NCBI GenBank assembly: GCA_010093815.1
Contig: ML996571.1
Length of the DNA stretch: 64,000 bases
Source of the DNA: Pseudovirgaria hyperparasitica
Lineage: Eukaryota
Strand: one strand, 5' to 3'
In this document: positions 28,811 through 35,949 of the stretch, in pieces
Layout: each line of letters begins with the position of its first letter
Numbering within the stretch: the stretch's first letter is position 1
Notes under the pieces: generated by a model
The model's input: the letters and a program-made list of their open reading frames with translations, nothing else
Databases searched by the model: none
What the model was told of the DNA's origin: nothing
Made by a program: the position numbers and the translations under genes

Positions 28811-30925
28811 TCCATAATCACATAGTCCCCTTCTTTCCTTTTGCACGTTAACAACGTTTGCAACGTGCGCAACGATGCTCCAAAGTCTCACCACTATCCA
28901 TCCCCTCTTCCAACCCGGGCCATGGTACTTTTTTCTATTTTGTTTTGTTCGATGTTGTTACTGTCAAGGTTCCTCCTTCCACCACATGGAACCTAGGATG
29001 TCATTGCTCCAATCACAGCGCATGAGCGACAACGGGCGGATGAGCCGGGGATGCACGGGATGTCTGAAGAAGGAAATCCGGTGGGTGCACCGGATGTGGA
29101 ATAGCGGGGGTTTGGGGGTGGGGAGGCAGCCCTACGACCGGGACCTGTCTGTTGAGAGACTCCTCCAGACCGCTACTATCGTTTGCATCTCTACAACAAC
29201 AATAACCTCGAGGACAACTCTCAGCTTGAAGAATTTAAATCTTTGCTTGAACCTCATACGGTTATGAGCGTGCTCTGTGCACTTTTTTACCTTTATAGTT
29301 TTGCTTACTGTTCGATCCTACGCGCGCAAGAGAGACGTAGATTCACGAGGAGTGTGACAAAGGCTGCAGACGGGGCATGCAATGTGTATTGGGAGGGGAG
29401 AGACGGGATTCGATCCGATTCATGTGATATGTGCGGTGCGAAAGGTAGAATACGAGGCAGGGTGCGACATCGGGCGAGATCTGTCTTGGCCAAAACAAAG
29501 CAAGGAAAAAAAGAAGGGCGATCGATTCGGATGGTTCGAGGCGAGAGCCCAAGGCGATGCTGTTCATCGGAGAGGATTGATAGGTACCTTAGTTAGCAGG
29601 TGTTACGATCCTCTGGGTGTGAGAGTGTGGTAATGCATGTGGTGGTGGTGATGATGATGATGATGGATCCCGGCAAGTGCGTGCGTAGGTCGCCGCCGCT
29701 CGGCAGCGGACTCAGGGACTGGACAGGCAGGAGCGCTGCGGTGTCATGCTGGGAAATGTCAGTATTGATGGAATCCCAGTACTGGCCTTGTTATTATAAC
29801 GATCATCAGGATCATGATAATCATCGTAATATCAGCGTCTAAGACGAGACGACGACTGTTCACTGTGTTCAGCTGGATCTGGAGTGCAGTGTGCAGACGA
29901 CATGTGAAGGCGTTCGGCTGAAGGCATTCGGCTGCATCCGGCAGGCTCAGCCGATCCCGAACAGTTGACAGATGCTCGCCCATTTGCCGTCCCCCTGAGC
30001 TGGCGGCCTTCCTGGCGAAGATGGCTGACCCTTTTGCGGTAAACACGGCGACAAGCAGTGACGGTTGACGGGGTCTAGAGCTAGGACATGCTCGGTTGGC
30101 TAGAACAATTCGGTCGAGTAGCAGCATCTGTCACCCAGTCCGTGGTTTCAATGTATGCTAATGCTACTGTTCGTCCGGAAATAGCCTCATACTCGTCTGG
30201 TCTGGTCATGGTCTATACACCATTGGTTTAGGGAGATATGGAGGACGTGTCTCGGATGGGGCATGGTTAGTCTAGTTATGTAACGATTATCCTTCGAGAG
30301 CGCGTGCTTCGTGGACTCGTGGACGTGTGGTCTGTGTACTGTGGACTGTGTGGACTGTGGCGCTCAGACTGGTGCAATATATGATGCAGCAAGTCGAGTG
30401 AATTCAGCTGAGGCCGTGCGATGTTACTGAGTGCATACTTGTCGTGAATATGGTAGGCAGTAGAGTAGTGGGTGGTAGGCAATATCGTGGTTCTGAACAG
30501 ATTGAATAATCGCATGATACCACGCAGACGGAATGCAGGCCAAACGGACAAAGGCGCTTCTCGGTCAATTGGAAGCGGCTGCTGGACAAGTGTCCGTCTC
30601 GGTGACGTCCACTTCACGGTAACGTCAACGTCAACACGTCAACGTCCGGACATCAGCCGTGGTTATAGCCACGATGGCAGGGAAATGATCTACGATCCGC
30701 ACCACTAACTGACATCAGGCGAGTTAATAGACGAGACGAATAATTGCATCAGCGTGATGATGATAGACGGTCTTGCTTCCCAAGTTCGCTATATCAGATG
30801 TCAGTCAGACGGGGATGGATGGGGGTGATGGGGCAGTCGGGGGAGGTCTAAGCTTGTTCCAGAAAGCCCCTAGAAGCGCTACTATGTCCAATCCTAGTGG
30901 GTCGTTAGGCAGATTCCACATCATC

Positions 30926-30969
30926 GTGTGTTGTTGTGCGTGCGTGTGTGCGTGTGTGTGCGTGCGTGC
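30926..30969. repeat. Imperfect (GT)/(GCGT)n microsatellite
   Basis: gtgtgttgttgtgcgtgcgtgtgtgcgtgtgtgtgcgtgcgtgc. Confidence 0.75.
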
Positions 30970-32977
30970 ACGGAGAGAGACAGACGGAGACGGCTCCTGT
31001 GCTATTCTGTAGAGATTGACCTGTTGTTCATTACTCGAGCACCCCCTTGCATGGTGTCGCACCTTCGCCGTTGTTGGCTTCACGAAGCCACGTGAGGAGA
31101 TGAGGATGAGGTTGTCAGTTGAGAACAACACACGCACACGCTAGGCCGGATCTCCGCTGCAGAACTGGGGTGCAGCCAGCAGCGATGGCACTCAACACCA
31201 TAGAGGAGGGTTAATCATGCCACTCAATAGTAGCAGTAATAGTACATAGCATATGATAATAGAACAGAAGTAATATGTAAATACTGGTAGAACGCAGTAA
31301 GACTACACATCTTTCTCTCTCCCTCTCTCTCGCGTGGTGACGGCTTAGGTCGGCATCCTGCTGGGTGGGGGATCCTAAGCTGCATCGCCGCAGTAGCCTC
31401 GACGCGAACCGGGCCTCTCAACTTTAACCCACTATAGCGACAGGCAGCGGCGGAGATATTAGGTAGAAGTGTAGGTATAGGTGGTAGATGGTATGTAGTA
31501 TGTGGTAATTAGGAGGTCAGTAAGCATGGTAGGTAGTAGTATAGTAAATGTAGCGGTGACGGAGCAGCCAACAAGCCAAAAAGCCAGCCAGCCAGCCAGC
31601 AAGGGGATGGATGCCAATGTAGTGCGCGCACTCAACTTCATGGATGGATGTGAAATGTGTCGTCAGGTATTAATGAGTAATTAGTAGCTTACAGTAGATG
31701 CTTCAACATGAGATTAGACAGTGGCAGCGAAGTGAATGTCGTCGTCAAGCCTCAATGCTCGCACGGCCAGACAGACCCCCTCATCGTTCGTCGCTGTCGT
31801 CGTCCCTTCTCCGCCATACAGCTTCTGCTTCATACTACCCATCCATCTCATCCATACCATCCATGCCCATACATCCCTCCCCACCTAAACCCGCCAAGTG
31901 GTTAATAACTTTGATACCCCGGACCACTTTTTACTCTTAATATTGCTGTTACATCTTCTACTTCAACAATCTTCCATTGCTACAGCTGTTCACTATTATT
32001 ACTCACGCGTTCAACAATCGAATCACTTGCTTTCTGTCGAGTCTTGTTGTCGGTAACGAGGGCGCTGCCTTACACACGCTACAAGCAAATCCTCATCATC
32101 AACATACACTCACTCTATCCCTCCCACCATTACTCACTCGCTCTCCCACCCTTTCTCTCTCTCTGCAGCTCTCACTGGATTGGAGCGCATATCGCACTGC
32201 ACCCTACATCACTAGAGTCGACCAACGAGTCAACCACCACCACCACCCGCCTGATCTTCTGTCCAATCATCACGACGAGTCTGTTACCCGAAATCGACTG
32301 CAGGCCTGGTCTCCGAATACTATAATATACCCTACTTCGCCTTCGCCTTCGCTCTCACCGCCACCGTCCATAATACTTTTCTGCCATCCTCGACGCTCTG
32401 CTGCCTCTCCAATTCTTTTGGCTTCACGTTGCAGAACGTACTGCCCGTTACCCGACGCTCGCCAAGCTACTTCCGCAACGACTATAGTACCTAGTCTAAC
32501 AACCAACGAACCATACCGCTACCGCTTACACCATCTCCATACAGTCCCCACAACGTCCACGACTGTGATCGCCCCATTAGCCGGCCTAAACATCTGTCAA
32601 CCACTCTCCGCCGCTCTCGTCCAATCCACCTTGCCTTTCCTCTCCAGATAATTCTCACCACCGCGAAACTGGATTCCTCAACCGCCTCCACGCCTCCCCT
32701 CTCCTACTCGCCCATCCAAAGTGACAGGGAACGCGAGTCGACCGCCGAGAGTACGCCAATCACAACTCCTGTCACTACCTCCCTCGATCATACATTCTTC
32801 GCTCGACAGCGTCGTGATAAAGACCTCTACTTCAGCTGGCATCGCAAGAGCGCAAACGACACAGATCCCACAGACTCGTCTGGGAGTGACTTGTTGTTCG
32901 AGGACGCAGGCGACTGCAGCTTCCCGCTGTTTCCTGAGTCTCCACCATCCGCCTCGTGCTTCCCCGCCGCCGCCACA

Positions 32978-34839
32978 ATGGCTACTCAGGTTTCGCCCAT
33001 TGACATCAACACCCCTCCCAGATACAATTCAGCAAGCCCTCGGAACCAAACCTCCAATCTGACCTCTGCTTTGCAACAAGCGAGCGCGCACGGCAACCAA
33101 CAAGTACAGGACTCGATACTCGGTCCAGACGAGCCACGGGTCTCCATCTCGGACCCGTCCGGTCGCAACGAGTCCATAAGTCATGCATTTGGCTCTTATT
33201 ATGGCTCAGGTGCGCGCCCAATTTCCACAAAGGATCGCCCTCGTCGTGAGAGCAACACTGGCGCTGGAAGCTACCTCGGCATGAGCTGGGGAGGTATGTC
33301 TGTGGGAAGCTGGATCAACAACGAGTAAGAGACAAAGACTTGTGTCGCAGAAGCAGGAATTAACGCTGACGCTCTCATAGTATAGCCATGCAGGGCACGT
33401 CGCCAGCCATGCAGTCACCTTCCTTCCACTCTTCTTCGTACCTGCCAAAAATGGAGGCAAATTTTATGAAAGATTTCACATGCTGCGGCCTGACACTTGA
33501 CTCACTACATGAACTCCTTCAACATTTTGAAGAGGCACATGCCCAAGCACCCGGTCAAAATTTACCTAGAACGTCAACCAGTGGTCATAGCGGCCTCCCA
33601 CAAAAGCCGGGTGCTATGCCTGCTTCGTCAAGTCGTGCAACACAAGCGGATCCTGCTGCATTCACCCAGCATGGCTTTCAGACTACTCCACGCCCACAGC
33701 CCACACAGTACAACATTGCACGGTCCCAGCGACTGGGATCAGATGGTTTCAGCAAAACGAACCTGTCTACCGTGCATGACATGGACAATGTGGAGGACAT
33801 GGAGATGGATGATGTGGGCGTGATGCCGTCAATTGATGAGCAGCACCACTTTGACATGCAGCAGCAACAACACTTCAGCAATCTTCCCCAACTGAATGTG
33901 AACCTTGCGAACTTGCAGAATCAAGGTCTTCGAAATTCGAACCCCAATACCCCTCTTGCTACAGCTTCGCCCTTCGGACTTCAACACAACCCCACTGTCT
34001 CTTCTGTCAACACGCCTACACTTAGCACAGCACCACTACAACAGCAAAGTAGGACACCAGACTCATCTACACCGGGTACTCCTGCAGAATTTGACCCAGA
34101 TTACACCATGGGCTTACCAGGAGGACTTCCGATGAATAACCAGATGAACGGTATGAATGGACTAAACGGAATGAATGGCATGAACGGAGACCTAAATTTC
34201 AACATGAATTTTGGCACTGGAATGGGGGGAGCCTTCGATGGTACAATAGACCAGCCAGCCAAGCGCCTCTTCAGCAAAAATGGATCCGGCGTCACCCAGG
34301 CACAGCTAGCGATGGCAATTCGTTCCGCACAGGGAGCTGGCGACGTGCAGCTACAGAATCAGCTTCTTGCAAAGATGCAAGGTCTGCAACAGCAGGAAGA
34401 GGTCAAGCCTTTCAGATGTCCTGTAATAGGATGTGAAAAAGCATACAAGAACCAAAATGGTTTGAAATACCACAAGACGGTCAGTTTGTACAGCCAAGCT
34501 ATGTTGTGCATATCCCGCTAACACTTCTTCCAGCATGGTCACCAAAATCAGAAACTCAAGGAGAATGATAACGGAACCTTCTCTATCGTCGATCCGGTTA
34601 CAAGCGTTCCTTACCCTGGCAGCATGGGCATGGAAAAAGAGAAGCCTTATCGCTGTGACTACTGCGGGAAGCGCTACAAGAACCTGAACGGCCTCAAGTA
34701 CCACAGACAACACTCAGCAAATTGTAACCCCGATCTCGTCAACCAACTTGGCCCGCTCAATGGCCTTCAAAATATTCAAGGTCTCAACGTCAACGTTGCT
34801 GGTGCAGGCCTAAGCGGCATCGAAGGTAGCATGTTCTGA
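32978..34839 (+). CDS. SFP1: Sfp1-like split C2H2 zinc-finger transcription factor; introns 33325-33380 and 34480-34533; possible CUG-initiated extension from 32669
   Basis: SSYLPKMEANFMKDFTCCGLTLDSLHELLQHFEEAH; KPFRCPVIGCEKAYKNQNGLKYHK.HGH; EKPYRCDYCGKRYKNLNGLKYH. Confidence 0.93.
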
Positions 34840-35949
34840 GTATCGAAACCACAGCGTGTTCTTTCCTTTTCACTTGCTTTTCATCTACTGCCAGATATCT
34901 GTCAGAGTCTTTTGTCGAATACCCAGCTTCAACCTTTTACACACGCTAAGGCCACTAATACGCTGTCACGGCCGCACATGATGAACCGATAGACTATGCC
35001 TCTCATTTGTTCATATACCGGCTGGCGGCACATCCTTCGGCATCATCATATCACATTTCAGGCGTTTTTAAAATACCACCCAACCAAAAGTTTGTTGATT
35101 TGTTGTTTGTTTTTCCGGAGTATTTTTCACTTGTCAATGTCGTCCCAACTCACTGCGTATACTGTCAGAAACGGGGTTTAAGCATTCCCGCTTTTTTTGT
35201 AATTTCTTGTGGATCAATTTCGCCCCTGTTTTTCGGGTCTCCCTACCCAACGGCAATGCTGATGTGTCTATGTGCACATTGGTTGCTCGCTGCTCTTGCA
35301 GTTCTCGTTATTCTCCATCCTCCTTATTTGGGTAAAAAAAGATTTACAAAAAGGGAGGCGAATTTCGGGAAATTTTGAAAAGAGAAATGGCGAGCATGTG
35401 CATTATGGGCGACTTTGGGTTGTTTTGGGGCACGCGCATGGGCGGAGCGTAATGTAGGTGGTACCTCTTGAAAAGCGTACCTAACCTAACCTACCTTTGG
35501 ATTTTTGGTTGGGGATGAAGATGAAGGAGAAGAGAGCGGGTGGGTGGGCGTGATGGGAAAGTTCTATAGATCGATCTCTCTGGCAGTTTAGCGAGTCTAT
35601 ATAAAGCAAGCACATGAGACTGTGTAGACTTCTTTCTGTTTTAGCTTAGCTTGCTTAGCTTTGAGCCATACATATACGAAGGAGGCTACTATTTATTTAT
35701 TACCTCTTGAAAAACTTTCTGGCTGCCGCTGGTTTAACTTGACTTTTTGCAGTTTTTTTTTGGAGGGGGGGGGCAGCAAAGGATCGGTCGGACATGAAAA
35801 TATGATTCCGTTTTATCGATTCATTCTTTGGGGAGGGGTGATGTTCCCAACTACTACTAAAAACCCACGATGCGCTCGCTCTGCGCTCGTCAACAATGGT
35901 ATTGAATTTTCCCGTCATGTTCTCGAAACAACCCCAAAAAAACCCCTTC

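Follow-up and report, generated by a model that had tools for sequence, protein, structure and literature searches.

A conserved near-cognate CUG codon as the probable start of an N-terminally extended Sfp1 in Pseudovirgaria hyperparasitica and related Pezizomycotina

The window analyzed in the present study is a 64,000-nucleotide stretch of contig ML996571.1 of Pseudovirgaria hyperparasitica (assembly GCA_010093815.1), and the subject is the gene on its plus strand that encodes a putative homologue of the transcription factor Sfp1. Yeast Sfp1 is the main TORC1-linked activator of ribosomal-protein (RP) and ribosome-biogenesis (RiBi) genes. In Saccharomyces cerevisiae, it has split zinc fingers and activates RP and RiBi genes as a factor downstream of both TORC1 and protein kinase A. 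We found that the 103 codons upstream of the first in-frame AUG of the P. hyperparasitica gene show coding-type conservation and are present in spliced mRNA. They are preceded by no usable AUG and begin at a near-cognate codon, CUG at 32669, that is conserved together with its context. From the sequence comparisons and RNA contigs, we consider it very likely that this extension is translated. On the same evidence, we assign a probability of roughly 0.8 to the reading that CUG 32669 is the start and that two isoforms arise by leaky scanning.

The SFP1 frame opens at 32495, directly after a TAG at 32492-32494, and meets no further stop until 33326-33328. Its first in-frame ATG is at 32978, and the CTG at 32669-32671 lies in frame, 103 codons 5' of this ATG. 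The initial annotation described this stop-free frame, the CTG in the strong context gcgaaaCTGg (A at -3, G at +4), and the peptide translated from it. A stop-to-stop frame listing bore out the coordinates, and the context and peptide were the same when the sequence was re-read and re-translated. In a model with three coding exons, the product has 583 residues from AUG 32978 and 686 residues from CTG 32669. The features of the locus are as follows.

31866..32668, plus strand: 5' leader before the CUG, ATG-free; in runs X1 and X2 alike, the RNA contigs start at 31866 and continue with no joint
32492..32494, plus strand: in-frame TAG, the upstream end of the SFP1 frame, from the sequence
32663..32672, plus strand: conserved initiation context gcgaaaCTGg, from relatives in alignment A3
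32669..32671, plus strand: proposed CUG start of the long isoform, from codon conservation among relatives
32669..32977, plus strand: 103-codon N-terminal extension, from homology and substitution ratios
32978..32980, plus strand: internal AUG (gccacaATGg), proposed start of the short isoform, from the invariant Met in alignment A4
32978..33324, plus strand: remainder of coding exon 1, from the RNA contig joint 33324 to 33381
33325..33380, plus strand: intron 1, 56 nt, GT..AG, joint in X1 and X2
33381..34479, plus strand: coding exon 2, ending within the first candidate C2H2 finger, from RNA contigs and translation
34480..34533, plus strand: intron 2, 54 nt, GT..AG, joint 34478 to 34533 (cut +1) in X1 and X2
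34534..34839, plus strand: coding exon 3, containing the second candidate C2H2 finger and ending at the stop TGA 34837-34839, from translation

The extension has homologues over its whole length. A search of longer proteins using the extension and exon 1 as the query gave 138 matches with E<=1e-3, the best 120 of which were listed. Among these 120 orthologues, 103 aligned over at least 85% of the query, with the extension covered, two were intermediate (75% and 82%), and 15 covered only 45-53% because their gene models begin at the internal AUG. The named matches among those listed belonged to Dothideomycetes, Eurotiomycetes, Lecanoromycetes, and smaller classes, all within Pezizomycotina, and their public names were 'transcription factor SFP1' or 'Transcriptional regulator of ribosomal biogenesis proteins'. 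Used alone as the query, the 103-residue extension matched 37 proteins with E<=1e-3 in an exhaustive HMMER search. Conservation has a sharp onset at x-K-L-D-S-..-T-P-P-P-L (alignments A1 and A4) and continues via ST.ESTP..TP, LYFSWHRK, and DLLFED.GD.SFPLFP to an invariant Met that corresponds to 32978. Furthermore, the extension is homologous to the AUG-initiated coding N-termini of Eurotiomycetes, such as those of Coccidioides and Aspergillus. Among the public orthologue models (P0001-P0120), those of AUG-less lineages are heterogeneous at this end: some begin at the internal AUG (573-604 aa), others carry long invented N-termini that are mutually unrelated (up to 1136 aa), and further models are flagged partial and begin with K-L-D-S or L-D-S.

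The assignment of the gene as SFP1 follows these public names and PMC10542180, in which AFUA_1g14750 is termed the Aspergillus fumigatus Sfp1 homologue. Two candidate C2H2 motifs, FRCPVIGCEKAYKNQNGLKYHKTHGH and YRCDYCGKRYKNLNGLKYHRQH, lie near the C-terminus and are split by a spacer. The Pfam family zf-C2H2 scored 14.6 and 19.8 bits on the window exons, below the curated cut-off of 25.2, while an orthologue (P0054) reached 25.7 bits.

A scan of metagenome contigs (alignment A2) retrieved 80 loci, 45 of which reach the N-terminal domain; together with the window, these collapsed to 34 distinct rows for the scoring of start codons. Codon alignments for the ratio of nonsynonymous to synonymous substitution rates (dN/dS) held 29 sequences, namely, the window and 28 metagenomic loci. 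In the extension, dN/dS was between 0.09 and 0.50 for 19 of 20 pairs, and one pair was saturated. Differences were mainly at third positions, and the ratios differed little between lineages without an AUG (0.12-0.50) and lineages with one (0.09-0.22). The frame was intact in all 23 AUG-less rows. The initial annotation had suggested that orthologous regions be examined for an open frame and for coding-type substitution, and both were present.

The codon at the position of 32669 was CTG in 21 of the 34 rows and GTG in two, with AAR before it and G after it. A at -3 and G at +4 were found in all 23 of these rows, which are the AUG-less ones, and the start block in relatives reads G-Y-N-A-A-R-(C/G)TG-G (alignment A3). 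A conserved near-cognate codon, for which the initial annotation had proposed a search in Pezizomycotina, is present together with its context in the AUG-less rows. CTG makes up 24-26% of the other Leu codons in the same sequences, in which CTC is preferred. CTG was kept in 11 of 11 deep lineages, the fourfold sites of which differ by a median of 68% (P ~2-4e-7 if the lineages are independent). The remaining 11 rows have an ATG at the preceding codon, where a pyrimidine occupies -3 in all 11 and G occupies +4 in none; the codon at the former CTG position in these rows is TTT, TTC, CTC, TTG, or ATC, and never CTG. Named proteins showed the same two types: x-K-L-D/A-S without Met in Pleosporales, Botryosphaeriales, Trypetheliales, and Lecanoromycetes, and Met at the start position in Onygenales, Eurotiales, Chaetothyriales, and Venturia. 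On a maximum-likelihood tree of exon-1 proteins, three changes of start type were needed, and CTG was found on both sides of the midpoint root.

No in-frame ATG occurs from the upstream stop to the CTG or GTG in 22 of the 23 CTG/GTG rows. The exception is a GTG locus (L058), in which two in-frame ATGs lie 86 and 89 codons upstream (L058:1694-1705 region), with no stop before the conserved domain. This lineage may make a longer, AUG-started product, if those ATGs lie in the mRNA.

The internal Met at 32978 is invariant in 23 of 23 sequences in alignment A4 and at least 90% conserved in A1. Of the 34 rows, 27 have a purine at -3 of its codon and 30 have G at +4. Between the two starts, only two ATGs in any frame were observed in 27 distinct sequences against 69.3 expected, whereas an equal length 3' of the internal AUG held 128 against 84.0 expected. 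No ATG was found between the starts in 30 of the 34 rows. Both inter-start ATGs are out of frame (+1) and lie at the same offset, 181 nt after the CTG, in the distant loci L011 and L031. A first start that is weak, followed by an interval free of AUG and then by a strong AUG, is the signature of leaky scanning, and this signature is present whether the first start is CUG, GUG, or an AUG in a poor context. The initial annotation had proposed two isoforms, and this proposal gains support from the near-absence of AUG between the starts, from the conserved internal AUG in its strong context, and, where an upstream AUG exists, from the weak context of that codon.

The explanation that best survives besides two functional isoforms is that only one product matters. 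Nearly all ribosomes may start at the CUG, with the internal Met being just a conserved residue, or CUG use may be noise and the AUG form the functional one. In favor of this explanation, near-cognate starts are usually inefficient. Human c-MYC1, which starts at CUG, is given as 10-15% of the canonical form (PMC12045569). However, purifying selection on the extension argues against CUG use as noise, and the features of the interval and of both starts described above argue for use of the second start. We consider a single relevant product to be unlikely.

Translation of the extension from another near-cognate codon farther upstream (ATA 32648, ATT 32651, CTG 32594, or others), or from several such codons as in cpc-1 of Neurospora crassa, appears slightly less likely still. 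From the stop at 32492 to 32669, the frame contains six near-cognate codons, and the V/A-K residues before the Leu are mildly conserved in appearance. However, none of the upstream near-cognate codons is conserved in relatives, A at -3 is found only at ATA 32513 and ATT 32651, and none has G at +4. Conservation collapses within ~9 nt 5' of the CTG. The close pair L017 and L020 differs by a frameshifting 1-nt indel 28 nt upstream, the alignment of three related loci falls apart 5' of ACCGTGAAGCTG, and in-frame stops are as near as 14 codons 5' of the start in relatives. A GUG two codons upstream was also considered as a conserved start, since V-K-L-D-S is the reading in many relatives, and rejected: the codon at this position is GTG, GTT, GTA, GCG, or GCA, and the residue in named orthologues is V, A, E, S, T, R, or H.

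Several points weigh against initiation at CUG 32669 with two isoforms, or limit how far it extends. Among close relatives, the codons of the two residues that precede the Leu (V or A in most cases, followed by K) differ mainly at third positions, and translation could start slightly farther upstream. However, the residue two before the Leu differs among named orthologues (V/A/E/S/T/R/H) while base -7 is conserved across these differing amino acids, which favors constraint on the initiation context over an upstream start. The lineages are not independent, and well-supported branches force only one change of start type. The start scoring covers 45 of the 80 loci; in the other 35, the match begins downstream or the contig is cut, and more distant classes are probably among these loci. 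L066 and L069, which belong to the 35, have AUG-led, divergent N-termini. A conserved RNA hairpin 3' of the CUG was not found: the consensus fold of 18 sequences had three pairs at -0.46 kcal/mol and no covariation, and the single-sequence fold after the CUG had z = 0.29. In addition, the RNA evidence consists of contigs from one sample, for which 5' ends and minor isoforms lie beyond the resolution of the contigs.

This RNA evidence came from two runs (X1 and X2) of that sample, from one study, and the assembled contigs were mapped on 30800-35800. They had no base differences from the window and skipped exactly 33325-33380 and 34480-34533, both GT..AG; therefore, they derive from spliced RNA. 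The main contigs, one per run (depth 399 and 166), are unbroken from 31866 to 33324. It follows that the CUG and the in-frame TAG at 32492 are both part of the mature RNA, in which no fewer than 1112 nt are free of AUG. The interval 31866-32977 (1112 nt) contains no ATG in any frame, against 8.6-9.6 expected by composition (P ~1e-4). Since the TAG at 32492-32494 is in frame, an AUG farther 5' in the SFP1 frame cannot read into the extension. Only small contigs (depth 3-6) lie 5' of 31866. The last upstream ATG (31863-31865) directly abuts 31866, where the main contigs of both runs begin, and this contig start is a weak hint of the transcription start.

The same contigs bear on the possibility that an upstream exon carrying an AUG, joined by splicing to the acceptor-like site at 32647 or to another point of the leader, starts the extension. 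The initial annotation had raised this splice. The acceptor-like ctttcctctccag is present at 32635-32647, several public orthologue models invent AUG-bearing upstream N-termini, and a low-depth X1 contig has a loose end at 32233. However, no splice onto 32647 was seen in the main contigs, which lack both true introns but run without a break across the region from 31866, and the invented N-termini share no similarity to one another. The loose end is irrelevant to the SFP1 frame because the in-frame TAG at 32492 comes after it. Two metagenomic contigs, L003 and L007, are fully spliced mRNAs. Their open reading frames run uninterrupted from the CTG for 689 and 687 codons, respectively, the frame is closed by a stop 41 (L003) or 18 (L007) codons 5' of the CTG, and no ATG precedes it. 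We regard an upstream AUG-bearing exon as highly improbable. The loose end itself consists of 97 letters before 32233, beside a CCA/CCG-rich stretch, and is possibly a chimeric assembly through low-complexity sequence.

The open frame of the extension was weakly beyond chance when taken alone. In random draws of the C-rich leader composition, frames of 103 and 161 codons were open in 4.5% and 0.9% of cases, respectively. Therefore, it is the comparative and RNA data that carry the case for the extension. The leader also has, in a different frame, a stop-free run of 236 codons without an ATG (31941-32651, plus strand), which probably arises from a base composition rich in C and poor in stops. 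Although these two observations would suit an untranslated leader, conserved as an RNA or DNA regulatory element or as the decaying remnant of a domain that this lineage has lost, this explanation has very little probability in view of the third-position bias and low dN/dS, the intact frame in AUG-less rows, the homology to AUG-initiated N-termini of Coccidioides and Aspergillus, and the lack of a conserved RNA structure after the CUG.

The long RNA contig of X1 (6749 nt) runs ~2.9 kb beyond 35800, while that of X2 stops at 35526, and the 3' end of SFP1 may overlap the transcript of its downstream neighbor. A simple repeat at 30933-30985 was left out of the RNA mapping, and the surrounding translations show CA/GT-type repeats.

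Returning to the start at CUG 32669, we propose the following mechanism. Scanning ribosomes would pass along the AUG-free SFP1 leader of at least 1.1 kb and arrive at CUG 32669, which has the best context in the leader (A at -3, G at +4). A fraction of them would initiate there, presumably with the initiator Met-tRNA, and produce the 686-residue long isoform, the first 103 residues of which would form a disordered, motif-rich module conserved across several Pezizomycotina classes. Other ribosomes would scan on over 306 nt without AUG in any frame to the strong-context AUG 32978 and make the 583-residue short isoform. In this scheme, initiation at the CUG itself, synthesis of the two isoforms, and regulation of the isoform ratio are inferences. 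Relatives keep the two-start layout, with CUG or GUG in a good context, or AUG in a poor one, at the first position. Because the layout is kept with each of these codons, sequence comparison suggests that selection maintains an inefficient first start.

The extension did not match any Pfam family. AlphaFold2, run on the extension and exon 1 with a 23-sequence alignment, gave a mean pLDDT of 49.5, with residues 1-103 free of secondary structure. The short conserved motifs of the extension are TPPL.YSP, ST.ESTP..TP, LYFSWHRK, and DLLFED.GDCSFPLFP, and they include several Ser/Thr-Pro sites and one acidic-hydrophobic patch. We read the extension as a predicted disordered regulatory module with conserved short motifs. 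These motifs may act in phospho-regulation, activation, or turnover.

Whether the ratio of the two isoforms is regulated, thereby linking the state of translation to the transcription of ribosome-biogenesis genes, is a conjecture that we hold only tentatively. Similarly doubtful is the broader idea that Sfp1 of many Pezizomycotina may be a sensor of start-codon stringency, responding to the eIF1/eIF5 balance, eIF2 availability, or amino-acid supply. In such a sensor, the two forms would differ in activity, localization, or stability through the phosphorylatable, acidic-hydrophobic N-terminal module. If this were the case, translation capacity would feed back directly on the transcription of ribosome-biogenesis genes. 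If two isoforms arise from an inefficient first start, initiation fidelity would become an input of growth control in filamentous ascomycetes. A conserved CUG start also explains three faults in public annotations, namely, truncation at the internal AUG, unrelated N-termini, and partial models, and it may guide their correction.

The class of mechanism to which SFP1 would belong, a non-AUG N-terminal extension as in cpc-1 and c-MYC, is already known. The main texts of PMC5487733 and PMC7049704 do not name Sfp1. In these main texts and in further literature judged mostly by titles and abstracts, we found no link of Sfp1 to non-AUG initiation or leaky scanning. The sole text match for Sfp1 isoforms or alternative starts names Sfp1 only as a motif. 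The P. hyperparasitica protein may resemble S. cerevisiae Sfp1 in its two candidate C-terminal C2H2 fingers, which are split by a spacer, and the two are putative orthologues by the public names of its homologues.

One close fungal parallel is N. crassa cpc-1, the GCN4 homologue, for which N-terminal extensions from conserved near-cognate codons have been described (Ivanov et al. 2017, PMC5487733). Both are Pezizomycotina transcription factors with a long leader, a conserved in-frame extension with near-cognate codons, and long and short isoforms, which for SFP1 are proposed. However, cpc-1 has AUG-started upstream open reading frames and several usable near-cognate codons (PMC5487733), whereas the SFP1 leader is AUG-free and has a single conserved CUG/GUG position, at the exact 5' edge of coding conservation. 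Furthermore, the SFP1 start position has been exchangeable in evolution with a weak-context AUG. Such exchange has been reported in fungal 'DualAUG' and 'DualNCC' aminoacyl-tRNA synthetases, which have dual starts by leaky scanning (Wallace et al. 2020, PMC7049704); substitution between weak AUG and near-cognate codons occurred multiple times in fungi (PMC7049704). As in these enzymes, a weak first start, either a poor AUG or a near-cognate codon, is followed by a stronger in-frame AUG in SFP1, and the two types interchange. In contrast, the extension of the synthetases is a mitochondrial targeting signal on an enzyme, while that of SFP1 would be a disordered module on a nuclear transcription factor. 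SFP1 may be a clean case of near-cognate/weak-AUG interchange in a transcription factor instead of a dual-targeted enzyme.

A parallel outside fungi is human c-MYC, in which c-MYC1 p67 (CUG) and c-MYC2 p64 (AUG) are made from one mRNA (Hann et al. 1988, as described in PMC12045569). The ratio of these isoforms is reported to shift with amino-acid supply and the eIF5/5MP balance (PMC12045569). Both genes encode transcription factors of growth and ribosome biogenesis with a long form from CUG and a short form from AUG, as proposed here for SFP1. However, the two proteins have no sequence relationship, the extension is 14 residues in c-MYC and 103 in SFP1, and regulation of the ratio has been shown for c-MYC and is only conjectured for SFP1. 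A possible functional analogy between yeast Sfp1 and c-Myc has been put forward (PMC3046052), and it makes the parallel in CUG starts notable, even though the proteins are unrelated. If the proposed switch exists, Sfp1 would be a convergent counterpart of the c-MYC1/c-MYC2 switch, kept for hundreds of millions of years by swaps among CUG, GUG, and weak AUG.

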